From Candidatus Dojkabacteria bacterium (GTDB taxonomy: Bacteria; Patescibacteriota; Dojkabacteria; J137), in contig JBDTVZ010000002.1 of NCBI GenBank assembly GCA_040006935.1, positions 144,174-208,173 of the forward strand: DNA of 64,000 nt, read 5' to 3'. This document shows positions 9,593 through 50,334 of this stretch, piece by piece. The first letter of the stretch is position 1; every line of letters starts with the position of its first letter. Both the position numbers and the translations under genes were made by a program. The notes under the pieces were generated by a model. That model saw nothing but the letters and a program-made list of their open reading frames with translations, was not told the origin of the DNA and did no database searches.

Positions 9593-11127
9593 ATTCTACT
9601 TAAAACTTCTTCTTTACCTAGAATTTGAAGTGATTCGAACAATGGTGGTGAAAATGGTCCTCCTACAACTGCTACTCTTAAAACCATAAAAATATCACCT
9701 GCTTTAGAATTTGTTTCCTCGGCAATTTTTCTCATTCCAGCTTCCCATTCTTCATGAGTCCATTTTGAAGTGTCGGAATCCATAGAAGACATTAATTCCG
9801 ATATTTTAGATTTTATTATTTGTAATTGTTCTTGAACACTCTTCAATTGTTTAATACTCCAGTCAATATTGTCAGGTTTATTGTAAAAGAATTCAATTTG
9901 CTGTAATGCTTCCCAGAAACTAATTGCCCTTTCCTGTACTAAAGCTAATTGTGATTTCAGAATAGACTTATCAGCTATTACTTTTTTTGAAAGATTAATC
10001 AGTTTCTTAACTTTATCAGCATCTATATTTTCGCTTATAAGAACTTCATTTATTTCCTCAGTTGAAGTAGTGGTTAAGTATTTCTCAATCCAATTTATAA
10101 ATTCTTCTGTGTATTGATCTAAAGTTAAGGATCTTGAGTAATGACCGTTGAACCAATCCATTTTCTTTGCATCCCAATTTGGATTTGATTTCTGAGTTCC
10201 AGCTAAATCAAATATTTGAATAAACTCTTCCAATGTAAATAATTCTCTATTATCTTTTGGAGCCCATCCTAATAACATTATATAGTTTAAGATTGCAGAT
10301 TTTAAGTAACCACGAATAACTAACCCATTTATTCTGAAACTATTATTTCTTTTACTAAATTTTTTCCCTGGAGTTGCAGGATCTAAAATAACTGGGAAAT
10401 GCCCTATTAAAGGTCTATCTTCAGGTTTAATTCCCAAACCATCAAATATTAGTATATGGACAGGTGTAGAAGATAACCATTCAGTTCCTCTGAATATATA
10501 AGTAATCTTCATTATAATATCATCGTACATTGCAGCAAGGTGGTAAGTTGGAATTCCATTTGACTTAACAATAATATAATCATCCACTTCGTTCGAATTC
10601 CAAACAATGTGGTTATGAGTAATAATATCGTCAAATTCTATTTTTGTATCTTTTGGAACTTTAATTCTTACTGTAAATGGTTTGTTTTCAGCAAGATTTT
10701 TATCAATTTCTTCTTGAGTTAAATTTCTGCATAAACCATCGTATCTAGTTTGTTGTTTAGACATTGTTTGTATTTGTCTAAGTTCGTCTAGTCGTTCTTT
10801 TGTACAAAAACATCTATATGCAGATCCATTTGAAATTAGTTTTTCGTAAGCTTCCTTATAGATATCTGTTCTTTCTGTTTGAGTATATGGAGCGTATGGC
10901 CCTCCGACATCTGGTCCTTCATCCCAATTTAATCCAAATTCTTTTATCCACTTCATATTAAATTCTAGAGTACCGGGGACAAATCTTTCTTGATCTGTAT
11001 CTTCATTTCTCCATATGAATTGACCGTTATTCTTTTTTGCTAAAGCGTAACAATATAAGGCTGTCCTTAGTAAACCTAAATGACCATAACCTGTTGGACT
11101 TGGAGCAATTCGTGTTCGAATGGTCAT
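9589..11127 (-). CDS. gltX: Glutamate--tRNA ligase (class I).
   Basis: The HIGH-region RIAPSPTGYGHLG is present, with WRNEDTD and a KMSKS-like KFSKR. Length (512 aa) and order match GluRS. Confidence 0.85.
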   Translation of the reverse strand: MTIRTRIAPSPTGYGHLGLLRTALYCYALAKKNNGQFIWRNEDTDQERFVPGTLEFNMKWIKEFGLNWDEGPDVGGPYAPYTQTERTDIYKEAYEKLISNGSAYRCFCTKERLDELRQIQTMSKQQTRYDGLCRNLTQEEIDKNLAENKPFTVRIKVPKDTKIEFDDIITHNHIVWNSNEVDDYIIVKSNGIPTYHLAAMYDDIIMKITYIFRGTEWLSSTPVHILIFDGLGIKPEDRPLIGHFPVILDPATPGKKFSKRNNSFRINGLVIRGYLKSAILNYIMLLGWAPKDNRELFTLEEFIQIFDLAGTQKSNPNWDAKKMDWFNGHYSRSLTLDQYTEEFINWIEKYLTTTSTEEINEVLISENIDADKVKKLINLSKKVIADKSILKSQLALVQERAISFWEALQQIEFFYNKPDNIDWSIKQLKSVQEQLQIIKSKISELMSSMDSDTSKWTHEEWEAGMRKIAEETNSKAGDIFMVLRVAVVGGPFSPPLFESLQILGKEEVLSRI

Positions 11128-12570: not shown

Positions 12571-13473
12571 ATGCGTGAAAATTCCTTAAGATTATACACA
12601 AAAATATTCATTATTATTCTAGCACTTCTAGTATTTTCACCTTTTTATAAAATTTCTGCTCATAACGCAACTAGCTCACCTTGGCTATATATAAACTCAC
12701 AAGCAATTACTGAAGATGATGAGAATCCAACACCAAACCCATCTAAACTAAAATGGGGAGAGCATTATTTAACTCAACAATTTAATCCAGGTGATACTTT
12801 AGAAGTGCAAGTCGATAAAAATGTGATTGTAAGAGATTTAGAAGTAAAGGAATCTAGTATTATTGAACATTTTGATCTAACACTTCCAGATAACTCTGTT
12901 AAGACTTTTAAAGATAATTTTTCAGAGAGCTTGAGTTCAACCGGGAATTACTTTTTAGATGTTAAAGTGAGTAAGAATACTGGTGAAGAGTTAATCCTAG
13001 AGAGTGTAATGTTTATAGTCGGGAATAAAATAGAGCAGTCTAAGTTTAAAGTAAACGGAACTGAAATTGATATTACCTCTGCGGCACCCACCTTTTTATT
13101 GAACAATGACTTTAATTTAGTCTTTGAAGTTATAAATCCAGAGAATAATAAATATAATTATCAATGGGATTTAGGTACTAGTCAAATTAAAGAAGGCGAT
13201 AGAGTAGAATATAATTTTGAAACTGCAAAAATACCTATATATGTTGTACTGAGAACAACTGATAAATCGACTGATATTTTTATCGATTCCTTTGTAAGAA
13301 TAGATTCTGACAGTGAGAATGTTTTTAAAATTCCAGCACCACCAGTTAAGGTTCCTGATGACCCTGCCCGAAGCTCTAATGTTTTCACTCCCCTAGTTCT
13401 AATTTTGGGAGGAATAGCAGGTTTAGGAATCATTTTATTAATTTGGTTTTTAATTATCAAGAAAAGGGATTAA
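12571..13473 (+). CDS. Hypothetical extracellular protein with a C-terminal transmembrane anchor. The start is moved to the internal Met at 12571, because the called start at 12538 overlaps the divergent neighbour's start.
   Basis: There is an N-terminal signal-like helix and a C-terminal LVLILGGIAGLGIILLIWFLIIKKRD anchor. The 12538 start would overlap 11332..12564 by 27 nt. Confidence 0.45.
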   Translation: MRENSLRLYTKIFIIILALLVFSPFYKISAHNATSSPWLYINSQAITEDDENPTPNPSKLKWGEHYLTQQFNPGDTLEVQVDKNVIVRDLEVKESSIIEHFDLTLPDNSVKTFKDNFSESLSSTGNYFLDVKVSKNTGEELILESVMFIVGNKIEQSKFKVNGTEIDITSAAPTFLLNNDFNLVFEVINPENNKYNYQWDLGTSQIKEGDRVEYNFETAKIPIYVVLRTTDKSTDIFIDSFVRIDSDSENVFKIPAPPVKVPDDPARSSNVFTPLVLILGGIAGLGIILLIWFLIIKKRD

Positions 13474-13506
13474 CTCTGATATAATCAGCAGATTAAGAAC
13501 ATTACT

Positions 13507-14295
13507 ATGCTAAAGCTAGAAAAACTATTTATAAAATTAACTGAAGAAAATAAAGAAATTGTTTCTGGAGTAAGCTTGGAATTTAAACCAGGAGAGGTTC
13601 ATTTACTAAATGGAAAGAACGGTTCGGGGAAAAGTACATTGGTAAATTCATTAATGGGTAATCCAATTTATACAATCACCTCCGGATCTATTTCTATTGA
13701 AAATGAAGAATATTCCGACTTCACAATCTCCAAAATAGATGGGGAGTCTGTTCAAAGAAACTTAAAACTTACCGTGCCTGACGGACGGCAGGAAACTTAT
13801 GACTTAAAACTTTCTTTGATGGAACCAAATGAAAGATCTTTGGCTGGAGTATTCTTAGCTAACCAATACCCAATGGAAATCCCTGGGGTAAGTTTGAGTA
13901 GTTATTTAAGGCTTATATATAATTCACGAAGGCCTAAAGAAGAACAGTTAAATGTATATAAATTTAAACAATTTTTAAAAGAGAGGGCAGAGATAATAAA
14001 ATACCCAGAAGCATTACTATTGAGAAATCTTAATGAAGGGTTTTCTGGAGGAGAAAAGAAAAAAACAGAAATTTTACAAATGCTGATTTTAGAACCACGC
14101 TATGTAATGTTGGATGAAATAGACTCTGGACTAGATAAACATTCAGTTAAAGAAGTTTTTGAAGGTTTAGTTAACTTCAAGAAAGAATTTTCAAATACTT
14201 GTTTTATTATAATTACTCACTATGACAAGGTTCAAGAGTATTTAACTCCAGATTTTGTTCATGAAATGGAGAAGGGGAAGCTAATTATAAATTAA
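13507..14295 (+). CDS. sufC: Fe-S cluster assembly ATPase SufC. It carries an in-frame insertion of about 30 aa (…NLKLTVPDGRQET…) derived from a GC-rich repeat element.
   Basis: It is colinear with E. coli SufC. Walker A is GKNGSGKST, the ABC signature is NEGFSGGEKKKTEILQMLILEP, Walker B is VMLDEIDSGLD, and the H-loop is ITHY. The extra segment lies between the positions equivalent to LSPEDRA and GIFMAFQYP. Confidence 0.9.
   Translation: MLKLEKLFIKLTEENKEIVSGVSLEFKPGEVHLLNGKNGSGKSTLVNSLMGNPIYTITSGSISIENEEYSDFTISKIDGESVQRNLKLTVPDGRQETYDLKLSLMEPNERSLAGVFLANQYPMEIPGVSLSSYLRLIYNSRRPKEEQLNVYKFKQFLKERAEIIKYPEALLLRNLNEGFSGGEKKKTEILQMLILEPRYVMLDEIDSGLDKHSVKEVFEGLVNFKKEFSNTCFIIITHYDKVQEYLTPDFVHEMEKGKLIIN
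13758..13812. repeat. In-frame GC-rich mini-repeat inside sufC (aacttaaaacttaccgtgcctgacggacggcaggaaacttatgacttaaaactt). It encodes NLKLTVPDGRQETYDLKL.
   Basis: It has the same element as 445..500. The insertion is not present in canonical SufC at this position. Confidence 0.65.
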
Positions 14296-14313
14296 GAATT
14301 ATTTGTCATTGCG

Positions 14314-14400
14314 AGGATCCGCTCGAGCGGAGACGAAGCAATCTCATTAAGATACCAGGTCACGGGATTGCTTCGTCATTTCATTCCTCGCAATGACAAC
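14314..14400. mobile_element. MITE-like GC-rich element, copy 2. Terminal inverted repeats are TGTCATTGCGAGGA … TCCTCGCAATGACA. Nested inverted repeats are GACGAAGCAATC / GATTGCTTCGTC, around a central CCGCTCGAGCGG palindrome.
   Basis: Seen directly. It lies 3' of sufC. Confidence 0.6.
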
Positions 14401-14473
14401 AATTTTCTGGACTTGAACTCAAATCCTGTATATACTATTATTTAGCACTTTTAATTACACTTATAATATTCTT

Positions 14474-15823: not shown

Positions 15824-16297
15824 ATGTCAATTTTCAATAAAAGCGAATGGGGTAAACTTCACATAGCAAAGTTCAGTAACTGGACTTTAACTTTACAAGG
15901 CGATCAGCATTTATTAGGATGGATGATGATATTCCCACCACGCAAGATAACAGGACCATTCACCTTACTAACAGATCAAGAACTTGTAGAATTAAAGAGG
16001 ATTTGTATCATTGTAGAGAATTTACAGAAAGAACTCTTTAATGCAGAATGGTTCAATTATTTACAAGCCGGTAACCATGATGGTACCTTACATATAAACG
16101 TACAGCCAAGATATTCTTCACAAAGAGAACTCGAAGGTTTTGTTTTCAAGGATGAGAATTGGGGACATCTAGCAAAACTATTACCAGATAATGAACTTGC
16201 GCCAAAAGATATAGTTTTAAAAATAGTTACAAAAGTACGAGAAGTTATAGCAAAAAATAAATACCCTGAATTTACAGTAGAGATATCGGAGAATTAA
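15824..16297 (+). CDS. Hypothetical protein. It may be a degenerate HIT-like fold paralogue.
   Basis: It has weak, alignable similarity to the two HIT-like proteins at 60422..61373 (QHLLGWMMIFP vs HTLVIPK; TLHINVQP vs HAHVHIVP). Confidence 0.35.
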   Translation: MSIFNKSEWGKLHIAKFSNWTLTLQGDQHLLGWMMIFPPRKITGPFTLLTDQELVELKRICIIVENLQKELFNAEWFNYLQAGNHDGTLHINVQPRYSSQRELEGFVFKDENWGHLAKLLPDNELAPKDIVLKIVTKVREVIAKNKYPEFTVEISEN

Positions 16298-18321
16298 TTT
16301 TCAAATATCTTTTGATGTAAATCTTTTGCTTCTGTATCGCTTAATCCAAAGTAATAAATTCTTACTGTATATTTAGTCTCCATAGAATCTTTACTAAACT
16401 TATCCACAATTTCTGTTTTCCATAACTTATCCACATTCGATTTTAATTTATCATTTACAAAGATTTCTATATTTTGATTATTTTCTAAGTTAATATTAAC
16501 GTCTAATGCTACTAATTTCGATTCAACCTCAATTCCTCCATTTGCATTTACTCTACTCATTATTTCATCAACTGCGGTTAGATTAACTTCTGCCACTATG
16601 CACTCTAATGAATTTATTTTGTTAGATACGTAAATAACACCAAGTTTCATGTCTTTATATTGGATATCCAAACATGTTGCTGGATGGGCTGTTTCAGGAT
16701 AATTCTGAGATTTTATATAATAAATTTCTGTTAAGCCTAAAGTTCTTAAAACGTAGTCTACGTTGAGTTTTAGGCTTTCCAAATCCTTGTTATCAGATAA
16801 CATTCCTAGAGAATAATGCTCCTCGTATTTAGATAATCCCACCCCACCTGCCGGGTTTAAGATTTCTGAATTTAATGAATGGCTGGCTGGTCCTTCATTT
16901 TTTAATTTTCCAAATACCTTCCCAATTTCAAAAATATTTATATTTGGAATGTTATTTTTCTTATAATTTTCGAGCTGGCTAAAAAGACTAACTGAGATGC
17001 TTTGTCTTAAGGTTGGAACTTCTTCGTTTATAGAATTCGTAACATTGACAGCTTCGGTATCTGAATAATTTGCAAGCCTATTTTTTTCTGTATCAACCAA
17101 TACCCAGCTTCTTACTTCGTCAAATCCTCTGGAAGCAAGCATATTTTGTACTTGACCATTGAGCTTCACTCTACTTGGCGTAATATCTTTTGTAGATTCA
17201 ACTAATAGTTTATCCATTGGTATTAAGTCGTAGCCTTTGAGTCTGACTATTTCCTCGATAAGATCCTCAGGGAAGCTGACATCAAGGCGATTTAGAGCGT
17301 TTTGAACTACTAAAAAGCCATTTTCTTCAGAAATAACTTTAAAACCTAAGCGTGCAAGATATATTTTGCATTCTTCTGATGTAATGTCTAATCCCGCAAT
17401 TTGTGATACTTTTGCAAGTTCTAATTTGATATCTAACTTTGGAGTTGGATGTAAATAGTTATCGTAAACCTCGCTTACAACTTTGCCAGATGTATATTTA
17501 AGGATTAAATTTACTAAAATATTAAAAGCTTCTGGAATACTTTCGGGATCCATGAATTTTTCTAATCTTTGTGAGGCTTCTGTCATAACTCGCATTCCTC
17601 TAGAGTTTCTTCTAATTAATCCACCATCGTAAACAGCCATTTCTACAAGAATATTGTTCGTTTTAGGGTTGATAGCGCTATTTTTACCGCCCACTACTCC
17701 AGCTATGGCCATTGGTTCTACTTCATTTGTAACTAGTAAAGTATCTTTAGTTAACTCAACATCATTACCATCAAGGGAGGTCATTTTTTTAAATATTGGA
17801 TTAATTTCCCAGAAAAGCTTTCCACCTTCTATCAAATCCCAATCAAATGCATGTGATGGGTGTCCTGTTTCGAGCATTACATAGTTTGTAAGGTCTACAA
17901 GACTGTTAACGGGATTAATATCGTAAAATGCAAGATATTGCTTTAGCCAATCCGGAGATTCGTTAATTTGTACATCAGAGATCCTTACGCCCATTAACCT
18001 TTTTACTGAATCTGTAGCTCTTACTTCTATATTAACTTTTTCTGAAGAATTACTAGAAAATTCTGTTATGAATTCTTCTGGAAGTCTAACTTCAATATTG
18101 TAGTATGCCGAAAGTTCTCTCACCAAACCCATTACTCCGAAGCAATCTGCTCTATTCTGTCGAACTTCTAGATCCAGCAAATAGTCTTTTTTACCTAGAT
18201 ACTCTACTTCAAAAAATTTATCCAGCATATATCCTATTATCGTAAAGGCTTTTGCAGTTTCTTTTGGATCAGATTTTAGGTCTGGTAAGTACTTTTTTAG
18301 CTGAGAGTAAAGAACTTTCAT
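16294..18321 (-). CDS. pheT: Phenylalanine--tRNA ligase beta subunit, short form lacking the N-terminal tRNA-binding OB domain.
   Basis: The PheT B3/4-region signature DLEVRQNRADCFGVMGLVRELSA matches the canonical D-x-E-[IV]-T-P-N-R-P-D-C-L-S-x-x-G-x-A-R-E. The size is 675 aa. No pheS is seen adjacent. Confidence 0.55.
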   Translation of the reverse strand: MKVLYSQLKKYLPDLKSDPKETAKAFTIIGYMLDKFFEVEYLGKKDYLLDLEVRQNRADCFGVMGLVRELSAYYNIEVRLPEEFITEFSSNSSEKVNIEVRATDSVKRLMGVRISDVQINESPDWLKQYLAFYDINPVNSLVDLTNYVMLETGHPSHAFDWDLIEGGKLFWEINPIFKKMTSLDGNDVELTKDTLLVTNEVEPMAIAGVVGGKNSAINPKTNNILVEMAVYDGGLIRRNSRGMRVMTEASQRLEKFMDPESIPEAFNILVNLILKYTSGKVVSEVYDNYLHPTPKLDIKLELAKVSQIAGLDITSEECKIYLARLGFKVISEENGFLVVQNALNRLDVSFPEDLIEEIVRLKGYDLIPMDKLLVESTKDITPSRVKLNGQVQNMLASRGFDEVRSWVLVDTEKNRLANYSDTEAVNVTNSINEEVPTLRQSISVSLFSQLENYKKNNIPNINIFEIGKVFGKLKNEGPASHSLNSEILNPAGGVGLSKYEEHYSLGMLSDNKDLESLKLNVDYVLRTLGLTEIYYIKSQNYPETAHPATCLDIQYKDMKLGVIYVSNKINSLECIVAEVNLTAVDEIMSRVNANGGIEVESKLVALDVNINLENNQNIEIFVNDKLKSNVDKLWKTEIVDKFSKDSMETKYTVRIYYFGLSDTEAKDLHQKIFEN

Positions 18322-20936: not shown

Positions 20937-21392
20937 TTAATTTGCTTCTTTTGTTACTGGAGCAACGTTTATAATCTTATCTTCACTTTCTCTATATATT
21001 AGAGCTTTTGTTGAGAAAATAATCACAGTATCTCCTTCTTGTGCATCTGCATAGAAAGTAGCATTTTGAGATTTAACTTCCTCAAGATTAGCAATAGTCG
21101 CTATTGTTGGACTTTCGTTTGGAACAAGAATAATTTTCTTGATTTTATCTGTTAATGCATTATATTTTGCTGTGTCTTGCGCTGTCTGATCAGTACCTGA
21201 AGTTGATGCAAGTGGTTCCATTCTAGGTTTTATTACAAAAAGATACACACCACCACCTACAATAACTACTATTAAAATTAGTATTATAAATTTATATAGT
21301 AAATCGTTTTTTTTCTCTATTCTCTTCTGTTTAAAGGGATCTTGAAGCGTATTCATAATATTAAATGTTAAAATAATTAATCTGCTAACCAA
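20937..21392 (-). CDS. Small membrane-anchored hypothetical protein. Its start overlaps the stop region of the third giant gene, and it sits between the giant-gene array and secY.
   Basis: It is 151 aa with a single TM (FIILILIVVIVGGGVYLFVI) and a hydrophilic C-terminal domain. There is a 16-nt overlap with 21377..25951. Confidence 0.5.
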   Translation of the reverse strand: MVSRLIILTFNIMNTLQDPFKQKRIEKKNDLLYKFIILILIVVIVGGGVYLFVIKPRMEPLASTSGTDQTAQDTAKYNALTDKIKKIILVPNESPTIATIANLEEVKSQNATFYADAQEGDTVIIFSTKALIYRESEDKIINVAPVTKEAN

Positions 21393-24300
21393 GTATAGCA
21401 GTAGTACTTTCCTATCTCAACAGGTGTTGTGAGGTTAATTTTAAATGAACTAGAACTAATTTCAGATACGTTTATCTTTTCTACAGAACTAAGATCTGAA
21501 CAATCTGAAGTCTTAGTAGGTGCTGTATCAGACTGACCTATGATTCCTACACTTACGAAAGGTTGATATGGATATTGTATAGGAAAACTAATTGTTTTGG
21601 ACAAAAGAGGGTAAGTTCCATCGGATTGCATATAACCCCATCCACTTATTTGGAACTGGTTTGGTTGGTCCACTTGATTATCTTTATCAAAACGTATTCT
21701 AGATATAACCAAACCATTTAAACTTCTCCATTCTTGTGATACAGAATCTCGGAATTCCAAGGTTTTAGAAATATCATTTATTCTAAAACCAATTTCATCA
21801 GTTGTAGATCCAAAAAGGATTTTCCCTTCAGATGAAACTTTTATGTAATTTAATCCATTTTTACTTTCAATATCTTTATTGACTTGTAAATTAGCTCCAT
21901 TTTCATCTACTTGATCAACACCGATACCAACTTTTGTATCAGCTAAACTAAATACATTATCGCCTTTTTGTTCCCATAAAAGTGATTGTGTAATTTGATT
22001 ACTATCCGCCAGATTTGTCCACTCTCCTTCCTTATTTTTAAATTGAACTTTTCCTGCTTCGTTTAATTTAAATCCTGCCTCTCCATTTTCACCAAGATTT
22101 ATTTGTACTTTATTATTTATTCCATCGTTGTTTCTAGTTATCATTACGCTTATGAAAGATATTCCCTCACCAGTATGTGGCTCTTGGGCTATTCCTATAT
22201 TGGTTTCTCCATCTTCAGCTTTTTTACCAACTCCTTCAATATCACTTGCAGTTATTTTATCTCCAATTGAAATATCGCCTTTAACTTTTACGGGAACTTG
22301 CCCCACCATACTCATTAATTTCCAATTAGGATCGTTATTGTTTACATCTTCAACGCTTGTAATATTTCCTACAAAACCAGGCGAAGTACTTATTACTCCA
22401 ACGATTGCTTTATCTCCTTCTTTTGCTTTTAGAATACTTTTAGATTCTGTTTCATCTAACTTAACAATATCTCCCGCTTCAATTGAAGTATCGTTTGTAT
22501 GCATATACTCTGCGTAATCAGCACCTACGCTAAACCATCCTCCTTGTTGACTTGTATATGCTCTACCCGTAGCATCGAATCTAAATAATTTTCCATCTGG
22601 TTGACTTGCCGTTGCTGGACCTGTACCTGTTTGGTTCGCAATATAAAATATATCCTCAGCTTTTGTTTGACCTAAGTCCAAAATATCTATGTCTGTCCTT
22701 GTTGAGGAATATGGTGCAACCTGACCTCCATATGTATAAAATTTACCATTGTATATACCATAAGCTGGCCCTTGACGACCAGTTCCTCCTGCTGGTAAAG
22801 CTTGAATCCAACTAGCTGTTTGTATATTGTAATAATATGATGCATTTAATAAAACTCCCGCTCCTGCATATCCTCCCCATAAATAAACCTTATCCTGATA
22901 TGCAAACAAAGTGGGTCCTGCAACAACACCTGTTGAAGGACCAGCACTCCAAGTAGCAGCCTGGATATCATATATTTCGAAAAGTGCTGAAAACCCTGAG
23001 CCTGGGATTGTCCCTCCAAGAACGTACATTTTACCATTCAATATGGTAGACCCCATTCCATATCTTGCAGTGCCTCCAGTTGTTCCAGTTGTCCATGTAT
23101 TTGCTCCGAAATCAAATATACTCATTGTATTAGTTACTGTAGGACAGGCTCCAGCACTATTACATCCTCCCCATAAGTACCACTTACCATTATAAACAAC
23201 TGATGAAGATCCAGATCGAGCAGTTCCTCCAGTTGTTCCTGCTGACCATGTATTAGTTGCTATATTGTAAATTTCCATTGTATTTAAAATACTTGCGCAT
23301 GCTGCTACATCACATCCTCCCCAAATATAAATTTGGGCATTATACAATGCAGACATATGTTCATAGTGTGTTACGCTGCTACTAGCTCCTGTAGACCAAG
23401 TATTACTTGCAATATTATAAATATACATAGTCTTGTCTCCTCCAGTTGCATCTCCTCCATAAACATAGAATTTACCTTGATATATCTCACCAGTTGGTGC
23501 ATTTAAAGTAGACGTTTGTGTTGCTCCCACAGTCCATGCTCTTGTTGTGTATTGAGTATTCTCATTTGTTAAATAAACTAATCCTAAAGGTTTTCCTGTT
23601 ATAGTCAAGACATTACTAGTATCCAATTTTAAACGCTCCTCTGAACCAACATTAATGCTTAGTACAGTATCTCTGATGCCTAGATCATAAATATCAGTTG
23701 TGCTTAAGATATTACTTCCAGCACTATCCAATCCATCTACTTCAAATATTTTTCCATTATATAAAGCTGCTACCTGAGCGTATCTAGCAGTACCTCCTGC
23801 TGTCCCTGTACTCCATGTGCCTAATGCCAAACTATATATATCTACAGTATTAACTCCTGATGAGGTAAAACCATGTACACTCAACATATTTCCATTACTT
23901 ATAAACAAGGAACCATTTCTTCTTGCTGTACCTCCTGCCGTGCCAGTGCTCCATGTGGCTGTTGGAATATCGTAAATGTCTAAAGTATTTGTTACTGCAG
24001 CAATAAAACCCCCGTAGTTATACATTTTTCCATTGTATATCACCGACGTTTGAGACCTTCTAGCAGTTCCTCCTGTAGTTCCAGTAGTCCAACTATTTGC
24101 TCCTATATCGTAAATATCTACAGAGTTTAAGTTAGTTGAGTTATTAGCAGAACCACCCCATATATAAATCTTTCCATTGTAAATAACAGAACTCGCTTGA
24201 CACCTTGCAGTACCTCCAGATGCGCCCGTACTCCAACTATTATTTGCAACATCGTAAATATCTACTACTGTGGTTGTAGATGTTAAGGCTGAGTTTGTGC

Positions 24301-25951
24301 AGCCAGTAACATAGTACATTTTCCCGTTATAAGTTTGACCTGTATGTGCCAGTCTAGCTGTACCTCCTGCTGTTGCAGTAGCCCAAGTGTTTGTTAATAA
24401 ATCATAAACATTCATTGTATTAACAATGGTTGATAATGCCGTATTTGTCGCACCACCCCAAATGTATAATTTAGAATTGTAAACTAAACCGATAGAGTAC
24501 GCTCTTCCGGTCCCTCCTCCAGCACCTATGCTCCAACTTGCAGCAACATTTGAAGAGAGATTTTTATTAATATTCAATCCTCTAAGTATATTTATATTAT
24601 TATAGCCATAGGCATCTATTTGACTACCTGTGATTGAATTTATACTGAGACCTTGAGAGCTAGTGATATTGCCATTGCCATAATAAGTTCCATTGCTATC
24701 AATCCCTACTCTTAAAGCATTGTTAATAAAGATTTTATCAAATTGCTGAGCAATAGTTGCACCATCACCTCCTATCTTACTGGCGATTTGCTCTACAACG
24801 GTCTGGCCTGTAGTCCAGCTTACTGCCGGAGAAACAGAAAGTTGAGTTGAAGTAGGAACTCCATCAATACGTGCGTAAGTTGTACCATTTACTAAAACTA
24901 AATTACCTACATCAAAATTTGTTGTTGAAGATACTACTAGGTTTTTTGTCGTTGTCCCAGTTCCTGAGGTTGTTGTTGATCCATTGCCCACCGTCAAAAG
25001 ACTTCTAACATCTCCTTTAAAATTACTAAGTCCATCCGCAGTAAGATTTAAAGCAATTGTTAATCCTCCGTCAGTTTTTAAAGTATTAGCAGCAGACCTA
25101 TATAAAGTCGCATCTCCTAATAGTAAACCTCCTGTAGCGCCTGTTTGGCTTAAAGCAAGCTGACCCGCATTATTCAATACAAATTTATCTGTACCCGAAC
25201 TTTGTAATTGAAGAATATTCCCTGAACCTTGTTGATTTACTCTAATTGCACCTGTAGAGCTTGGCGTACTTTGTATTGTGGTTGGGCTCAATTGAACAAA
25301 TCCATCTGTTGATGCACCACTCAAAGTTTGAGCGCTGAAAACCGTTGGGACGCTCATTAACCCAGTACGTGTGAAAGTTTCTATTCCCCCTGGTGGTGAT
25401 GCTAAAGTTGTCCATGCACCACTCGGATCAAAAGTAATTTCTAAAAATAGATCTGTTCTATCAAAATTTACTCCTGTAACGGAATCGGCATCTCCATTAT
25501 CATCAAATAATTGACAAAGAGTAGAAGAAGTAACTGTTGAAGCCCAGGAATGGGTTCCAGATGCAGATGCAACACAAACAGAATTAATTCTTAAGTCGAA
25601 CCTTCCTGCACCTGTGCCTATTTCTACATTTGTAAATAACTCTTCAAATAAAAGATTATTTCCTGCAGTTGCTGTTCCACCGCTTACAACATTCCAAATT
25701 CTAACTCTAAAATCGCAAGTATCTGCTCCAGCCGACACACATGCTGGACTTCCAGTTGCAGGTGCGAGTCCCGTAGTCTTGTTTGTGATTCTACTTTGAA
25801 AGTTAATAGTATTATTTATAGTTGCATGAACCTGATGAGTTGAGCTAAAGATAAACATTATAAAAACCACAGATAACAGACGACAGACGACAGATATTAT
25901 TCTTCTGTGATCTGTCTTCCGTATTCTGTTTTCTATTAATTTATAATTCAT
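21377..25951 (-). CDS. Giant membrane-anchored surface protein, paralogue 3 (1524 aa). It has a conserved N-terminal module, two six-bladed Kelch-like beta-propellers and a conserved C-terminal module.
   Basis: The ORF is uninterrupted. There is an N-terminal TM helix. Twelve blades repeat W(S/T)TGTAGGTAR….YNGK(I/M)Y(I/V)WGG…(L/V)DIYD. A linker FGIRDTVLSINVG lies between the propellers. The C-terminal roughly 450 aa is colinear with the other two paralogues (…KLFRFDATGRAYTSQQGGWFSVGADYAEYMHT…GVISTSPGFVGNITSVED…). Confidence 0.85.
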   Translation of the reverse strand: MNYKLIENRIRKTDHRRIISVVCRLLSVVFIMFIFSSTHQVHATINNTINFQSRITNKTTGLAPATGSPACVSAGADTCDFRVRIWNVVSGGTATAGNNLLFEELFTNVEIGTGAGRFDLRINSVCVASASGTHSWASTVTSSTLCQLFDDNGDADSVTGVNFDRTDLFLEITFDPSGAWTTLASPPGGIETFTRTGLMSVPTVFSAQTLSGASTDGFVQLSPTTIQSTPSSTGAIRVNQQGSGNILQLQSSGTDKFVLNNAGQLALSQTGATGGLLLGDATLYRSAANTLKTDGGLTIALNLTADGLSNFKGDVRSLLTVGNGSTTTSGTGTTTKNLVVSSTTNFDVGNLVLVNGTTYARIDGVPTSTQLSVSPAVSWTTGQTVVEQIASKIGGDGATIAQQFDKIFINNALRVGIDSNGTYYGNGNITSSQGLSINSITGSQIDAYGYNNINILRGLNINKNLSSNVAASWSIGAGGGTGRAYSIGLVYNSKLYIWGGATNTALSTIVNTMNVYDLLTNTWATATAGGTARLAHTGQTYNGKMYYVTGCTNSALTSTTTVVDIYDVANNSWSTGASGGTARCQASSVIYNGKIYIWGGSANNSTNLNSVDIYDIGANSWTTGTTGGTARRSQTSVIYNGKMYNYGGFIAAVTNTLDIYDIPTATWSTGTAGGTARRNGSLFISNGNMLSVHGFTSSGVNTVDIYSLALGTWSTGTAGGTARYAQVAALYNGKIFEVDGLDSAGSNILSTTDIYDLGIRDTVLSINVGSEERLKLDTSNVLTITGKPLGLVYLTNENTQYTTRAWTVGATQTSTLNAPTGEIYQGKFYVYGGDATGGDKTMYIYNIASNTWSTGASSSVTHYEHMSALYNAQIYIWGGCDVAACASILNTMEIYNIATNTWSAGTTGGTARSGSSSVVYNGKWYLWGGCNSAGACPTVTNTMSIFDFGANTWTTGTTGGTARYGMGSTILNGKMYVLGGTIPGSGFSALFEIYDIQAATWSAGPSTGVVAGPTLFAYQDKVYLWGGYAGAGVLLNASYYYNIQTASWIQALPAGGTGRQGPAYGIYNGKFYTYGGQVAPYSSTRTDIDILDLGQTKAEDIFYIANQTGTGPATASQPDGKLFRFDATGRAYTSQQGGWFSVGADYAEYMHTNDTSIEAGDIVKLDETESKSILKAKEGDKAIVGVISTSPGFVGNITSVEDVNNNDPNWKLMSMVGQVPVKVKGDISIGDKITASDIEGVGKKAEDGETNIGIAQEPHTGEGISFISVMITRNNDGINNKVQINLGENGEAGFKLNEAGKVQFKNKEGEWTNLADSNQITQSLLWEQKGDNVFSLADTKVGIGVDQVDENGANLQVNKDIESKNGLNYIKVSSEGKILFGSTTDEIGFRINDISKTLEFRDSVSQEWRSLNGLVISRIRFDKDNQVDQPNQFQISGWGYMQSDGTYPLLSKTISFPIQYPYQPFVSVGIIGQSDTAPTKTSDCSDLSSVEKINVSEISSSSFKINLTTPVEIGKYYCYTWLAD

Positions 25952-25956
25952 AATTT

Positions 25957-28900
25957 CTAATTACCTAGAGCTCTCCAAGTGTAACAGTAATACTTACTCC
26001 CCAAGGAGGGCTGATCGGTTCTTATATTTAAATTAAATTTAGTTGTGTCTATAGAATAAGGTGTTATTGTGACAATAGACTCATCAAATATACAACTACT
26101 CAAATTTGCTGGCTCTGTTGTTGAAGATCCAGAAATATCTGTAATTACAACAGGAATACTTCCATAGTTCTTTCCAAACCCTATTGATTTCACTAAGGAT
26201 GTAGTATTATCTCCTTTAATATATCCCCAACCGCTCACTTGTTCAACGTTTTTAATTTCAGTATTAGACCCATCAGGATTAACTTTAGAATTAGATATAA
26301 CTAATCCAGATAACTTTTTCCATTCTTGAGTTATAGAGTCTTTAAATTCTAAGGAATTATCATTAGAATTTAATCTAAATCCAATATCTGAAGAATTGAA
26401 AGTTATACTTCCCTCGCTTGCAGATATTTTTACATATTTTAAACCATCTTTAATTTCAATATCTCCTGCTATCTGTAACTTACTTCCATCCAGATTCTCT
26501 TCTGGTACTCCAATACTTGTTACTCCATTGTTATTATCATATATATTATCTCCAATTTTTTTCCAAATTACACTAGTATCCACACTAATCTGCTGATCAA
26601 TATTTTTCCAATCTTCTTCTTTATCTTTATATTGCAATTTACCTTCATTGCTTAGTCTGAAACCAGCCTCACCTTCTGTTCCTAAGTTTATTTGAACTTT
26701 ATTATTTATTCCCGAATTATTTCTAGTTATTAATACACTTATTCCTCCTATACTTTCTCCATCAAATGATTCTTGAGCTATTCCAATATTATCTTCTCCC
26801 TCCTCTACTCTCATACCAATCCCTGCCTGGCTACTGATTCCAATTCTATCTCCTACTTTTATAGGACCATTTTCCCTGCTTACTTTCACTGGAACTTGTC
26901 CTACCATGCTTAATAACTTCATATCGGCTCTTTGTCTGTTTATATCTTCCACTGAGGTTATGTTTCCTACAAAACCAGGATCTGTACTTATCACACCTAT
27001 TACCTCATCTCCTTTGCTTGCTTTTGATATACTTTTTCCGTCCGACAAATCTAATTTAACAATATCACCTGCTTGTATATTTGTGTCCGAAGTGTGCATA
27101 TACTCAGCATAGTCAGCTCCAACGCTAAACCAACCTCCCTGAGAACTTGTATAAGCTCTTCCAGTCGCATCAAATCTAAACAATTTAGAATCTCCACCTC
27201 CAACTCCTTGTTGATTTGCAATGTAAAAGATATCTTCTGTTTTTGAGATTCCAAAGTCATAAATATCCATTGTATTAAGTTGTGTTCCACCACCTGTATT
27301 CAGTCCCCCCCATCCATAAAGCTTAGCATTCCACATTATTGTAAATTGACCATACCTCGCAGTACCCCCTGCTGTTCCAACACTCCAAACATTTCTTTCT
27401 ATGTCATAAACATCCATTGCTGTCGATGCTGCAGTTGTAAATCCAGCCCAAGAAATCAATTTCCCATTATATTCGACAAGTTGTCCTAGGTATCTTGCAT
27501 TCCCTCCTGCTGTTCCTGTTGTCCATGAGTTTGTTACCAGATCATAAATATCCACTGTATTTGTTGCGGCTGCAATAAAACCTCCAAAATTATACATTCT
27601 GTTTTTATATAAGACTGCACTATGCCATCTTCTAGCTGTTCCCCCTGCCGTTCCTGTACTCCAGCTATTTGCAACTGGATCATAAATATCTACTGTATTT
27701 ATATTTACAGTACCATTAATTCCTCCCCATATATAAATTTTGGCATTCCAGAGTACAGCAGATGCCCCACCTCTTGCGGTTCCCCCTCCTGTCCCTGTAC
27801 TCCATGTATCTGTTGCTATATCGTAAATATCTACAGCATTAGTTACAGATGAAGATGCTATGTTTAGTGTTCCCATAATAATATATATTTTCCCATCGTA
27901 TATAGTTGCAGATGCAGCCCACCTTCCAGTGCCTCCAGCTGTTCCTGTGCTCCAGGTACTAGTTTTAAGGTCAAAAATATCTAAAGTATTATAATAAGCT
28001 GTACAGCCCGTGGTTGTACAACCTCCCCAAATATACATCTTGTCATTGTACTCTACCGTTACTCCATAGTTTCTAGCTGTTCCTCCCGTTGTTCCTGTTG
28101 TCCATCCAGGAGCAGTATATTGACTTCCTTCTTTTGATATATACTGTAAGCCTAATGATTTTGAAGAGAGAGTTATTACATTATTTTGGTCAATATTTAA
28201 CCTTTGCTGATCGCCTACATTCACTTGCAAAACTGTATCTTTAATTCCAAAGTCATAAATATCCATTGTATTTATTGCTCCTGATGCGTCTCCTCCCCAG
28301 TTATACCACTGGTTATTAAACACAGCACTTGCTGGATGTATTCTCGCCGTACCACCTGCTGTTCCTGTACTCCAACTATCTAATGCAAAATCATAAATAC
28401 TTAATGAATTTAGTGCAGAACCATTAGTTCCTCCCCATCCATACATTTTATTATCAAATACCGTAGCTACATGATCTTGTCTTGCGGCACCTCCAGCTGT
28501 TCCTGTTGCCCATGAATTAGCTGAGAAATCATAAATATCCATTGAATTTACTACACCACCATTATTTCCTGCCCAGACATACATTTTGTCATTATAGACA
28601 ATAGCTGTATGTTGAAACCTTGCAATTCCACCCGTTGTCCCTGTTGTCCATGAATTAGCTGCGAAATCATAAATATCCATTGTGTTTGAAACACTGCCGG
28701 TAGATCCACCCCAGATATACCATTTATTATTATAAACAACTCCACTAGCTGCATCTTTCGCAGTACCTCCTGTTGCCCCTGTACTCCAGGTACCAAGTTT
28801 TAAATCATAAATATCCACAGTATTTATTCTCGTTCCTCCACTATTAAAACCACCCCATGCATACATTTTATCGTTAAAAACTGTTGCTACATGGTATCTT

Positions 28901-30537
28901 CTAGCAGTACCTCCTGCTGTTCCTGTTGTCCAAATTTTTGATGAGAAGTTATAAATATCTAAAGAATTGATCACGGATCCTGTAGAACCTCCCCATACAT
29001 AAAGATTTCCGTTATAGGTAACTGCTGTATGTGAGTGCCTTGCTACACCGCCAGTTGTTCCTGTACTCCAGCTTCCAGCTACATTAGAATACTCTGCTTT
29101 ATTTATAATTAAACCTTTGGTTGTATTTAAACCTACAGTGGCCGAACTCCCCATATTTAAACTATTTGTTCCAGTATCAATAGCAAAAGGATTTGTTTTT
29201 CCTCCACCAATAGATTGGTCTCCATAGGTGGTAGAATTTGTACTAGAACCTACTCGCAATCCATTGTTTGTAAACATTCTGTCGTAAAGTAAAGCTACAT
29301 TTGTTCCATTTCCTCCTATGTCTGGAGCTGTATATTCAACTACTGTTTGACCATTAGACCAGCTAACCGCTGGGTTCACTGTGAGTGCTGTACTACTTTC
29401 TACTTTAGTTATAATTGCATAAGTAGAACCATTTATAAGAACTAGATTGCCTACATCAAAATTAGTTGTACTTGAAACTACTAGAGTAGTTACACTGCTA
29501 CCCGTTCCAGTTGCAGTTGTGCTTCCATTTGAAACAGTCGTAATTGCTTTTAGGTTTCCTTTAAATTCTGAATAACCTAGCACTGAGAATTCTGTACTAT
29601 TAGTCCCATCTACAATTAAGTTATCATCAGTTTTTAATACATTAGTTGTTGAATTATATAAATTCACATCTCCACCAATTACTAAACCTCCTGTAGCCCC
29701 AGTTTGAGCAAGAGCCAATTGGCCTGCATTACTCAAAACGAATTTATCGGAACCCGCTTGTTGTAATTGAATAACGTTGCCACTTCCTGTTTGATTAACT
29801 CTGATTGCTCCTGAAGAGCTGGAAGTGCTTTGAACTGCACTAGGATTAAGTTGAACAAATCCTGTTTCATCGAGTCCATTAATTGTTTTAGTTGCATAAG
29901 CTGAAGGAACGGAAGTTAAATTAGTCCTTGTAAATATTTCTATTCCTCCTGGTGGAGAAGCTAGAGTAGTCCATGCACCGCTAGGATCAAAAGTTACTTC
30001 CAAATATAGATCGGTCCTTGCAAAATCAATCCCTGTAGTTGTATCGGTATCTGCATTATCATCAAATAAATTGCAAACAGTTGCAGATGCACCTGTAGTC
30101 CCCCACTGATGTGTTGAGCTGGAAGTAGCTCCACACACTGAGTTTATAGATAAAGTAAAGATTCCATTTCCATCACCTAATTCAACATTATTAAATAATT
30201 CTTCATACATTAAGTTGTTACCCGCAGTTGCTGTTCCTCCACTTACTAAGTTCCAAATCCTCACTCTAAAATCACAAGTATCTGCACCAGAAACTACACA
30301 AGTAGGTGGGGTACCAGAAGTAATATTTAAAAGTGTTGATTTCACAATCATCTTTGTTTGGAAATTAATTACATTATTAATTGCCGCATGGATCTGATTT
30401 GTTGAGATTAAGTTTAGAGTTATGATTGTTAACAACACAAAGATCATAGATAACAGATGACAGATGACAGACCTTATCAATCTATTATCTGCAATCTGTG
30501 ACTTATTTTTTATTCTTTCATTTCTTAATTCTTTCAT
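25957..30537 (-). CDS. Giant membrane-anchored surface protein, paralogue 2 (1526 aa), with the same architecture as 21377..25951.
   Basis: The ORF is uninterrupted and lies 5 nt from its neighbour. It has the same N-terminal (CDFRVRIWN..SGGTATAGNNL) and C-terminal (GWFSVGADYAEYMHT) modules and 12 Kelch-like blades. Confidence 0.85.
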   Translation of the reverse strand: MKELRNERIKNKSQIADNRLIRSVICHLLSMIFVLLTIITLNLISTNQIHAAINNVINFQTKMIVKSTLLNITSGTPPTCVVSGADTCDFRVRIWNLVSGGTATAGNNLMYEELFNNVELGDGNGIFTLSINSVCGATSSSTHQWGTTGASATVCNLFDDNADTDTTTGIDFARTDLYLEVTFDPSGAWTTLASPPGGIEIFTRTNLTSVPSAYATKTINGLDETGFVQLNPSAVQSTSSSSGAIRVNQTGSGNVIQLQQAGSDKFVLSNAGQLALAQTGATGGLVIGGDVNLYNSTTNVLKTDDNLIVDGTNSTEFSVLGYSEFKGNLKAITTVSNGSTTATGTGSSVTTLVVSSTTNFDVGNLVLINGSTYAIITKVESSTALTVNPAVSWSNGQTVVEYTAPDIGGNGTNVALLYDRMFTNNGLRVGSSTNSTTYGDQSIGGGKTNPFAIDTGTNSLNMGSSATVGLNTTKGLIINKAEYSNVAGSWSTGTTGGVARHSHTAVTYNGNLYVWGGSTGSVINSLDIYNFSSKIWTTGTAGGTARRYHVATVFNDKMYAWGGFNSGGTRINTVDIYDLKLGTWSTGATGGTAKDAASGVVYNNKWYIWGGSTGSVSNTMDIYDFAANSWTTGTTGGIARFQHTAIVYNDKMYVWAGNNGGVVNSMDIYDFSANSWATGTAGGAARQDHVATVFDNKMYGWGGTNGSALNSLSIYDFALDSWSTGTAGGTARIHPASAVFNNQWYNWGGDASGAINTMDIYDFGIKDTVLQVNVGDQQRLNIDQNNVITLSSKSLGLQYISKEGSQYTAPGWTTGTTGGTARNYGVTVEYNDKMYIWGGCTTTGCTAYYNTLDIFDLKTSTWSTGTAGGTGRWAASATIYDGKIYIIMGTLNIASSSVTNAVDIYDIATDTWSTGTGGGTARGGASAVLWNAKIYIWGGINGTVNINTVDIYDPVANSWSTGTAGGTARRWHSAVLYKNRMYNFGGFIAAATNTVDIYDLVTNSWTTGTAGGNARYLGQLVEYNGKLISWAGFTTAASTAMDVYDIERNVWSVGTAGGTARYGQFTIMWNAKLYGWGGLNTGGGTQLNTMDIYDFGISKTEDIFYIANQQGVGGGDSKLFRFDATGRAYTSSQGGWFSVGADYAEYMHTSDTNIQAGDIVKLDLSDGKSISKASKGDEVIGVISTDPGFVGNITSVEDINRQRADMKLLSMVGQVPVKVSRENGPIKVGDRIGISSQAGIGMRVEEGEDNIGIAQESFDGESIGGISVLITRNNSGINNKVQINLGTEGEAGFRLSNEGKLQYKDKEEDWKNIDQQISVDTSVIWKKIGDNIYDNNNGVTSIGVPEENLDGSKLQIAGDIEIKDGLKYVKISASEGSITFNSSDIGFRLNSNDNSLEFKDSITQEWKKLSGLVISNSKVNPDGSNTEIKNVEQVSGWGYIKGDNTTSLVKSIGFGKNYGSIPVVITDISGSSTTEPANLSSCIFDESIVTITPYSIDTTKFNLNIRTDQPSLGSKYYCYTWRALGN

Positions 30538-30544
30538 TTCTTAA
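30513..30544. repeat. Tandem 16-nt duplication (ttctttcatttcttaa x2) spanning the stop of giant gene 1 and the start of giant gene 2.
   Basis: Seen directly. On the minus strand it reads TAAGAAATGAAAGAA twice: the first copy carries stop plus ATG, and the second is in-frame coding (LRNER). Confidence 0.6.
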
Positions 30545-44082: not shown

Positions 44083-44114
44083 TTAACCTGCCTGCCTGTA
44101 GGCATGGTTATTAA
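44083..44114. repeat. TTAA-flanked GC-rich palindromic element (ttaaCCTGCCTGCCTGTAGGCATGGttattaa) between rplW and rplB.
   Basis: Seen directly. It is in the same family as 11278..11319 and 50307..50334. Confidence 0.45.
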
Positions 44115-48908: not shown

Positions 48909-49358
48909 ATGTTAACGAAATCTATTCAATTAGTAAATGGAACTCAAGAAATCGAAATTAAAGAAGATATGGAGATTAACGCCATGTTTGTTGGACGTGA
49001 TTCTGATGAAGTGAAAATTAAGCTAGACTTTGTACATTCAAAACCAGGACTAAAATCCAGAATTAATATTAAAGCAGTTGTGTTTGATAAAGCTAGGTTT
49101 GACTTAGAAGGAATATTAAAAATAAATAAAGGTGCTATTGGAACAGATACTTATTTAAAGATAGATTGCTTAGTAATGAGTGAATCTGCTTTTGCCAGAG
49201 CTGTACCAAGTTTGGAAATTAAAGAAAGTGAAGTAAAAGGAGGGCATGGAGCAACAATTGGATATTTAGATCCAATGCAAACTTACTATTTAACTTCAAG
49301 AGGGATGAGTAAAAAGAAAGCAGAGAATATATTGGTCGATGCGTTTATTAGGAATTGA
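48909..49358 (+). CDS. Stand-alone SufB/SufD family C-terminal domain protein (149 aa). It may be a fragment or degenerate remnant.
   Basis: EIKESEVKGGHGATIGYLD matches SufB/D (EADDVKCSHGATVG), and TYYLTSRGM matches LFYLRSRGI. It is far shorter than the roughly 400 to 500 aa of SufB/D. Confidence 0.55.
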   Translation: MLTKSIQLVNGTQEIEIKEDMEINAMFVGRDSDEVKIKLDFVHSKPGLKSRINIKAVVFDKARFDLEGILKINKGAIGTDTYLKIDCLVMSESAFARAVPSLEIKESEVKGGHGATIGYLDPMQTYYLTSRGMSKKKAENILVDAFIRN

Positions 49359-49397
49359 TCCTTCCACTTCCACTTATCCTTAACCTCCCACTTTCTC

Positions 49398-49751
49398 TTA
49401 TACTACTGATTCCATCGATCTCATTAACCCTGATAACATTTTGGAAATCGTTGTCAAATCATTATAGACATTCTCGTAAGTTTCTTCAGAAATATGATTT
49501 TCTAATTTCAGTAATCTCATTATGGCAACAGTTTCTTGAGTCGAACCTCTAGCAATATTGTAGAAATTCCTCTTATCTTTTTTACTCATTTTCCCTGCTC
49601 CCTCTGCTATGTTTAAAATTATACTTGTAGCAGATCTAAATAATTGATCTCTGAGATTTGAATTTATTTCTTTATTTTTGAATGAATCTTTAAGTTGTTT
49701 ATATATGTCTTCAGATTTCAAGTAAACTGGGAAATTTTCAAATGCAAACAT
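49398..49751 (-). CDS. Four-helix-bundle protein of the 23S rRNA-intervening-sequence family (DGR Avd-like fold).
   Basis: The family signature LRDQLFRSATSIILNIAEGAGKMSKKDKRNFYNIARGSTQET is present. Confidence 0.6.
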   Translation of the reverse strand: MFAFENFPVYLKSEDIYKQLKDSFKNKEINSNLRDQLFRSATSIILNIAEGAGKMSKKDKRNFYNIARGSTQETVAIMRLLKLENHISEETYENVYNDLTTISKMLSGLMRSMESVV

Positions 49752-50045: not shown

Positions 50046-50189
50046 AATTTAATTAAAAGACGATTAATTAAAAATTAAAAGCTTTTAACGTTCGTGAATT
50101 ATATCATCCTGAACATTCAAAAAGAAGTCCCTATTTAAGAATTACTTTAATGACTTAATTACTTGTTAACTCAAAATTTAATCCAGGCT

Positions 50190-50295
50190 GTGTTACCTGC
50201 CTGCTGCGCACGCAGGCATGGCAGCCTCTTACGGGATGCCACGCCTCACTACGTTCGGCTCGCAATGACAATGACGATTCTGGGATTCTTCTTTT
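50190..50295. mobile_element. MITE-like GC-rich element, copy 3 (…CCTGCCTGCTGCGCACGCAGGCATGGCAGCC…GGCTCGCAATGACAATGAC…). Two related copies lie at 1397..1530 and 14314..14400.
   Basis: It shares the TCGCAATGACAA arm and GC-palindromic internal segments with the other copies. Confidence 0.45.
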
Positions 50296-50306
50296 AATTA
50301 TTAATT

Positions 50307-50334
50307 CTTAACCTGCCTGCAGGCAGGTTCTTAA
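50307..50334. repeat. TTAA-flanked perfect GC palindrome (cttaaCCTGCCTGCAGGCAGGttcttaa) directly 3' of gene 50339..52336.
   Basis: Seen directly. Confidence 0.55.

Follow-up and report, generated by a model that had tools for sequence, protein, structure and literature searches.

Rickettsia palindromic elements (RPEs), reportedly described by Ogata et al. in 2000 and summarized in PMC3733652, are clearly palindromic and 100-150 bp long, with copy numbers from tens to hundreds that include intergenic copies. Templated (filler-DNA) insertion and ectopic short-patch gene conversion, by comparison, belong to the general mechanisms of repair and replication, and events of this kind that took place between unrelated bacterial genes, in frame, and were retained are to our knowledge rarely documented. 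The REP (repetitive extragenic palindromic) and REPIN (REP doublet forming hairpin) repeats are short GC-rich stem-loops, mainly intergenic, that at times code for 20-30 aa, and REP-type repeats of the GTAG- and CGTC-tagged families occur inside open reading frames (ORFs) in several phyla (PMC3733652). Here we describe a DNA segment of 55 nt that is found twice, each time in frame, in two unrelated genes of a Candidatus Dojkabacteria metagenome-assembled genome (MAG; WS6, a phylum of the candidate phyla radiation, CPR). One gene encodes an ATP-grasp protein and the other is sufC, and both host proteins are encoded on one 299-kb contig. We analyzed a 64-kb stretch of this contig, referred to as the window, in which all coordinates are given; copy counts are likewise those within the window unless another database is named. 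Our account of the two copies, to which we give an even chance, is that a GC-rich core derived from a repeat was captured in one gene and that a patch of ~40 nt was then copied to the other.

Copy 1 of the segment (444-498, + strand, in the ATP-grasp gene) and copy 2 (13757-13811, + strand, in sufC) are identical at 47 of 55 nt (85.5%) without a gap, and a blastn search within the window aligns them with an E-value of ~1e-11. This agrees with an earlier first-pass annotation of the same DNA, which had put the identity of two segments of about 55 nt at about 85%. The 14-mer ACCGTGCCTGACGG is found at just two sites in the window, which are the two segments, where 0.04 would be expected by chance. 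Each segment is part of a long ORF, and the two share one reading frame, as had also been claimed, with NLKLTVPDGRQET as the translation of both. The segment has stop codons in each of its remaining five reading frames, so that only this one frame and orientation could survive within a gene. The similarity is strongest in the patch that spans 444-483 in copy 1 and 13757-13796 in copy 2 (36/40 nt identical). The 3' part of copy 1 (484-498) matches copy 2 at just 11/15 nt, and is probably native flank rather than part of the copied patch.

Could the shared segment be a coincidence, or an error of assembly? In favor of such an explanation, the source sequence is a MAG and the flanks are low-complexity, AT-rich DNA with AAAACT repeats. 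However, neither the E-value nor the scarcity of the 14-mer is compatible with a casual match, and the GC-rich core is identical in the two copies save for synonymous sites. Both frames are intact, and both proteins yield confident AlphaFold2 models (predicted local distance difference test, pLDDT, of 90.5 for SufC and 91.9 for the ATP-grasp protein). In addition, the Logan assembly of SRR26386622 includes a contig of 1040 bp that matches window positions 13352-14391 at 100% identity. Because this independent assembly exactly reproduces the SufC insert, the insert is not an assembly chimera. We therefore regard chance or artefact as a highly improbable explanation. The shared segment is the product of a real DNA copying event, far beyond what chance would produce, and is at most a candidate mobile element.

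We compared each host protein with its orthologues, and in both cases the closest relatives lack the insert. The ATP-grasp gene (1-1395, + strand, with its 5' end upstream of the window) encodes an ATP-grasp_3 protein (Pfam PF02655) of 482 aa (P0121 / MEP7103680.1). Its seven closest orthologues (63-66% alignment identity) are without exactly nine residues, TVPDGRQET, which are encoded by the 27-nt GC-rich core of the segment (457-483, + strand). The core is a clean 9-codon insertion directly after Leu170, the conserved end of a helix. The residues on either side find counterparts in the orthologues: the NLKL before the core aligns with the conserved helix end, with its aromatic-x3-L-x3-L spacing, and the QNSKLVIQ after it aligns with ATDKFVVQ. 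The AlphaFold2 model is in keeping with this alignment. In it the helix ends at residue 170 (NLKL), residues 171-183 are predicted as low-confidence coil (residues 175-180 fall below 50 pLDDT), and a strand follows at residues 184-188. Certain ATP-grasp orthologues carry a different insert, of 9-10 aa, in the same loop.

The second host gene, sufC (13507-14295, + strand; 262 aa, P0001 / MEP7103693.1), is identified by TIGR01978, with a score of 239.4 bits against a cutoff of 212.8, and by E. coli SufC structures (2d3w, 5awf), which match it at E = 5e-50 in an alignment that splits at the insert. That the protein still passes TIGR01978 with the insert in place bears out the earlier statement that its ATPase motifs are intact. 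In an alignment of 33 Dojkabacteria homologues, the loop at the insert site ranges from 0 to ~35 aa, and nearly all of the homologues have extra residues there. Relative to E. coli SufC, residues 67-102 of the window protein are placed between residues 64 and 68. The earlier figure of about 30 aa added to SufC thus holds with respect to E. coli (~33 extra residues), but the bulk of these belong to the length-variable loop that is present in most of the aligned Dojkabacteria proteins, and the lineage-specific part is just 12-13 aa. The segment had also been placed between the equivalents of LSPEDRA and GIFMAFQYP, which is incorrect, as in the protein it precedes the LSPEDRA equivalent (MEPNERS).

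The closest SufC orthologues (74-80% alignment identity, 248-252 aa) are without 12-13 aa of the window protein. What SufC has gained is NLKL plus the same core that is found in the ATP-grasp protein (12-13 aa, 36-39 nt). When the 39 nt encoding NLKLTVPDGRQET (13759-13797, + strand), the net SufC insert, are removed at the codon level, a loop of 13 residues is left; the two relatives with DNA to compare have 13 and 14. In the AlphaFold2 model, residues 82-89 and 93-101 form a two-stranded hairpin with VPD at its turn, and the blocks covering residues 81-100 have a pLDDT of 82-85. The net insert makes up the outer part of this predicted beta-hairpin, including its exposed tip, and by the model it extends this hairpin, which is only a short one in the closest relatives. 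The two insert sites are both exposed in the models, and their predicted conformations differ (a hairpin in SufC versus a coil in the ATP-grasp protein). Altogether, the orthologue, codon and model data agree that an in-frame, lineage-specific and compositionally foreign insertion occupies exposed loops of two unrelated proteins, as the first-pass annotation had proposed.

The same SufC loop also carries an insert in another Dojkabacteria genome, GCA_034680565.1 (L004, SufC P0019). There, positions 10254-10318 hold a different GC-rich in-frame insert (...HLPAFSKETFSDQRQAGTSGVRDQ...) with the imperfect hairpin arms CCTGCCCGCCTT and AAGGCAGGCGGG. No second copy of it is present in the 20.8-kb locus of that genome.

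The two copies differ in how much each gene has gained: the net insert is 27 nt (+9 aa) in the ATP-grasp gene versus 36-39 nt (+12/13 aa) in sufC. The 12-13 nt to the left of the core (AAACTTAAAACTY, encoding NLKL) are common to both copies, and the left-flank 12-mer AAACTTAAAACT is found nowhere else in the window. Since NLKL is native to the ATP-grasp helix and the SufC insert is the larger of the two, the SufC copy would appear to carry native ATP-grasp context. With net inserts of unequal size, copying of a patch is a better fit than a pair of independent transpositions. When ~20 syntenic orthologue pairs were compared between the window and relatives' contigs, three genes had window-specific insertions of at least 7 aa; two of these three are the ATP-grasp gene and sufC, which share the same inserted sequence.

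Short direct repeats (aaaact) flanking the core had previously been read as consistent with target-site duplications, which are expected to differ between insertion sites. The direct repeats, AACTTAAAACT ... AACTYAAAACT, are 42 nt apart at both sites and nearly identical between the two loci. Target-site duplications can be dismissed on two grounds: the flanks hardly differ from one site to the other, and those of the ATP-grasp gene are at native positions. An explicit version of that model, with an 11-nt repeat and a 31-nt element (42-nt period), was also rejected: taking out the corresponding 14 aa would leave the ATP-grasp protein 5 aa below all of its orthologues, and would disrupt its conserved helix. 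At the junctions of the patch, exact identity extends over at most 1-2 nt, and an 11/12-nt similarity (ACTYAAAACTT) lies 4 nt past the right junction.

All four of the nucleotide differences within the 13 shared codons are synonymous (CTC/CTT, GGC/GGA, AGA/CGG), which has a probability of P = 0.002 under neutrality. The peptide is therefore not evolving neutrally. The three codons after these 13 show non-synonymous differences, and are probably native flank. By a rough estimate, ordinary purifying selection (a ratio of non-synonymous to synonymous rates, dN/dS, of 0.1-0.3) is enough to explain the pattern (P = 0.06-0.3). Where the copies differ, rare GC-rich codons stand against common AT-rich ones, a pattern that fits a slow shift of a GC-rich ancestor toward the codon usage of the host.

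The same data invite a different interpretation, in which the shared peptide is a functional module, for instance a short linear motif that binds a common partner, and was spread or kept by selection, with the DNA similarity as a by-product. Such a module would be in line with the surface exposure of both copies and with the count of zero non-synonymous against four synonymous changes, which arose in spite of the rare codons. Yet that count is expected just as well under ordinary purifying selection, and the predicted conformations are unlike, SufC having an ordered beta-hairpin where the ATP-grasp protein has a loop of low confidence. The peptide is present in no orthologue and in essentially no other public protein, and among relatives the length of each loop is free to vary. 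On balance, we consider a functional module improbable.

The core itself is compositionally foreign. Of its 27 nt, 16-17 are G or C (59-63%) in a genome of 34% GC, a content found in just the top 0.7-1.6% of coding 27-mers, and it uses codons that are rare in their families (CGG 1%, ACC 7%, GGC 7%, GTG 10%). When the 122 GC-rich islands of the window are ranked by similarity to the core, the first four places go to the four intergenic loci of one hairpin family, CCTGCCTGC/GCAGGCAGG, located at 44085-44109, 50305-50332, 50190-50229 and 1418-1463. Outside the two copies, the window has its closest counterpart of the core at 44087 on the - strand (17/22 nt, ungapped), and shuffled cores equal this match in only 0.3% of cases (p = 0.003). 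Copy 2 also has an exact 12-mer, ACGGACGGCAGG, in common with an intergenic element, at position 1446. A relationship between the GC core and the intergenic elements, which had been suggested from inspection of the sequence, is thus statistically detectable.

Two of the four hairpins, AACCTGCCTGCCTGTAGGCATGGTT at 44085-44109 (fold z = -3.7), whose minus strand is the best core match, and the perfect 18-nt palindrome ACCTGCCTGCAGGCAGGT of the CCTGCCTGC family at 50305-50332 (z = -4.2), just downstream of the gene 50339-52336 on the - strand, are significantly structured and stand just 3' of genes. They look like terminators. The other two are situated within inverted dimers that resemble miniature inverted-repeat transposable elements (MITEs) or REPINs, at 1397-1534 and 50183-50275. 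The CCTGCCTGC/GCAGGCAGG motif was not found in ~69 kb from the loci of five relatives. The hairpins are present here and absent from the relatives' loci, so this lineage has gained GC hairpin repeats, and the core plausibly came from one of them. Because the similarity is short, we take the derivation of the core from the lineage's own repeats to be supported, not proven.

Three MITE/REPIN-like elements are present in the window. The element at 1397-1534 encloses an inner GC hairpin (1418-1463) that holds the 12-mer ACGGACGGCAGG. A second (14303-14404; TTGTCATTGCGAGGA ... TCCTCGCAATGACAA) stands directly 3' of sufC, and relatives are without it in the same spacer. The third (50183-50275) consists of the GC hairpin TTACCTGCCTGC...GCAGGCATGGCAG followed by GGCTCGCAATGACAA. 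These elements are inverted dimers of the unit GTCATTGCGAGGA-N-GACGAAGCAATC, with strong folds (z = -5.2 and -8.4). The motif that they carry, GATTGCTTCGTC-N(4-12)-TCCTCGCAATGAC, is very widespread, being found on at least 120 JGI metagenome contigs that range from 28 to 72% GC. Its usual form among the JGI contigs listed is a hairpin of ~80-100 nt, GTCATTGCGAGCGAAGCGAAGCAATC...GATTGCTTCG..CTCGCAATGAC, and one contig (L049) holds a tandem array of the motif with a 121-nt period. A search of the window and two of the MITE-like elements against Rfam returned a tRNA and sub-threshold noise only, and in the literature we found no paper naming the REPIN-like motif.

The hairpins bring up the principal alternative to a copied patch, namely that the segment is a multicopy, non-autonomous mini-element, similar to RPEs or REPs, with ...CTTAAAACTY as its preferred target, which is tolerated in one frame in permissive loops. 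The two copies would then belong to a larger family dispersed over the rest of the genome. Several of the observations above would follow from this: the core is foreign in composition and related to lineage-specific intergenic GC hairpins, a single frame is open, as in RPEs, and both sites are exposed loops. The genome has also gained other small elements, such as the MITE-like element 3' of sufC, for which relatives have no counterpart, and the L004 genome has its own GC-rich, hairpin-like insert in the same SufC loop. Furthermore, there is precedent for REP-type repeats within ORFs in several phyla (PMC3733652).

The number of copies found, however, is not that of a multicopy element. No further copy of the patch, coding or intergenic, was found in the window by blastn. 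When the GTDB representatives (the source genome not included) were scanned with GTGCCTGACGGNNNNCAGGAAAC, five matches were obtained in unrelated phyla, which by our estimate is about the number expected by chance. A codon-degenerate scan for LTVPDGRQET gave no match in the JGI metagenomes or in IMG/VR, and blastn against phages gave no match to the segment. A synthetic query of 64 aa, made up of both peptide variants and the peptides of the reverse strand, was compared with 5.8 billion proteins, and at most 14 clusters share words with the peptide.

The structure of the segment also argues against a mini-element. We rejected the idea that the segment is a palindrome, as it folds no better than shuffled sequence: the z-scores of the DNA fold on the + strand are -1.05 for the SufC copy and +0.85 for the ATP-grasp copy. 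The sole significant value, z = -3.5 on the minus strand of the SufC copy, depends on the DNA that flanks the segment in sufC, where there is an inverted repeat of 9 bp. Neither copy has terminal inverted repeats, and no transposase, including RAYT (REP-associated tyrosine transposase) and IS200/IS605 transposases, was detected among the ~23 window ORFs that were scanned against Pfam or NCBIfam. The near-identical and partly native flanking repeats and the unequal net inserts, both described above, are likewise difficult to reconcile with independent insertions of one element. We thus think that a mini-element of this type is possible, but on the unlikely side. Accordingly, the part of the first-pass annotation that likened the segment to an RPE stands as far as in-frame, orthologue-absent inserts at the protein surface are concerned, but is not supported as regards a multicopy palindrome with target-site duplications.

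We favor, instead, capture of the core followed by copying of a patch. The 27-nt core, ACCGTGCCTGACGG....CAGGAAACT, would first have been taken up by the ATP-grasp gene, in frame and directly behind the codon for Leu170, where it encodes TVPDGRQET, with the lineage's own GC-rich intergenic hairpin repeats (CCTGCCTGC/GCAGGCAGG) as its most likely source. A patch of ~40 nt, comprising the core and four native ATP-grasp codons, would then have been copied to the tip of the SufC hairpin, 13 kb away; alternatively, both genes may have received the patch from an unsampled third copy. The copying would have been non-reciprocal, as in a templated or illegitimate insertion during repair or replication, and transposition of a palindromic element would not be required. 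Selection would have permitted the single open frame, and purifying selection would have kept the peptide while the synonymous sites drifted. In this account, the homology of the DNA, its absence from orthologues, its foreign composition, its place in loops and the purely synonymous differences are direct observations, and the hairpin origin of the core, the ATP-grasp-to-SufC direction and the repair-type mechanism are inferred.

Several points weigh against this account. Two copies in 64 kb would also fit a small dispersed family, of which more members may exist elsewhere in the genome, and the different GC-rich, hairpin-like insert in the L004 SufC loop hints at a more general, element-driven process. 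The similarity between core and hairpins is short (17/22 nt and one 12-mer) and is between sequences of biased composition. The direction of copying depends on the loop alignments, and the SufC loop is hypervariable, with a 17-aa loop in the homologue P0008; the patch may also have overwritten four native codons in the ATP-grasp gene. Finally, the junctions lack clear microhomology, which leaves repair as a candidate mechanism only.

What would these possibilities mean? If the patch was copied once, the two genes offer a clean natural case of a short DNA patch that moved between unrelated bacterial genes, in frame, and came under selection, and the event bears on how protein loops acquire new sequence. 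A more far-reaching scenario is that this lineage hosts an active family of GC-rich micro-elements of 27-40 nt, derived from REP/REPIN-like hairpins, that insert in frame in loops and are kept by selection. We hold this to be unlikely. If it were true, it would be, as far as our searches reach, the first RPE-like case of "selfish DNA in proteins" in the CPR, and the smallest such element known to us. A mobile family would extend the Rickettsia-style use of selfish repeats as new peptide segments to CPR bacteria, and would help to explain the large number of lineage-specific loop insertions in CPR proteins. Under either reading, the effect on the function of SufC or the ATP-grasp protein is probably small. 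As for novelty, our search of the literature found no specific report of palindromic in-frame elements in the CPR or Dojkabacteria, in line with what the first-pass annotation had supposed; the broader claim that such insertions are not described outside Rickettsia is overstated, given the REP-type repeats inside ORFs (PMC3733652).

Other features of the window touch on its genes and repeats. Neither of the ORFs on the two sides of sufC (311 and 426 aa) is matched by a Pfam or NCBIfam model. At 35 kb from sufC, a 149-aa ORF (48909-49358, + strand) has a match to the SufB/D core domain that is confined to its C-terminal half (PF01458 positions 106-232) and scores under the cutoff of the sufD model TIGR01981; it is followed by a 65-aa ORF (49355-49552, + strand). 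This partial SufB/D ORF, together with the lack of hits for the neighbors of sufC, suggests that the Suf system is unusual or very diverged here. A 675-aa gene at 16294-18321, identified as PheT by the Pfam domains of its orthologues (B3_4, B5, tRNA_synthFbeta), contains a 15-aa insert, EGPASHSLNSEILNP (16852-16896), on the minus strand. Two relatives are without this insert, which has a GC content of 0.42 and contains CGGCAGG on the + strand. By eye it resembled a hairpin, but we rejected it, as it has no significant fold and no other copy.

The repeat output of the window is dominated by three adjacent giant paralogous genes (1524, 1526 and 1982 aa; 21377-36489, - strand), which contain many repeats of ~138-150-nt units and whose homologue in a relative matches Kelch / beta-propeller Pfam families. 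GC-rich repeats of the type GGTGGTGC(A/G)GG, with a period of 9-12 nt, are found at 58235-58328 (- strand) in an 845-aa ORF (56053-58590) that has no Pfam match, and a run of CCTCCGCC repeats (50345-50386, - strand) is located at the 3' end of a DUF2207 gene.

Set beside the known systems, the two copies resemble RPEs in that repeat-related DNA is found in frame in unrelated housekeeping genes, with a single open frame and in exposed parts of the proteins, is absent from orthologues, and has apparently left the host protein functional. They differ from RPEs in that the piece is only 27-40 nt, has no significant fold and is known in two copies, and in that one copy seems to carry the flanking sequence of the other gene. 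With REP and REPIN repeats they share a core that resembles the intergenic GC hairpins of the genome, two of which lie inside REPIN-like inverted dimers. In contrast to those repeats, the coding copies are degenerate, with neither an intact stem-loop nor a clear terminal tag, and a RAYT or IS200/IS605 transposase was not seen in the window. Unlike MITEs, they have no terminal inverted repeats, and their flanks are direct repeats that are near-identical at both sites. Lineage-specific loop extensions of ABC ATPases and ATP-grasp proteins offer a further comparison, as both insertion points are indel hot spots; in ordinary loop indels, however, one would not expect DNA that is shared between unrelated genes and foreign in composition. 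Templated insertion would require a separate event to account for the GC core of the donor, and no clear microhomology is seen at the junctions here. In other respects the two copies are what a templated insertion would be expected to leave behind: there are two of them, separated by 13 kb and oriented alike, the patch in the recipient includes flanking sequence of the donor, and the net insert is larger in the recipient.

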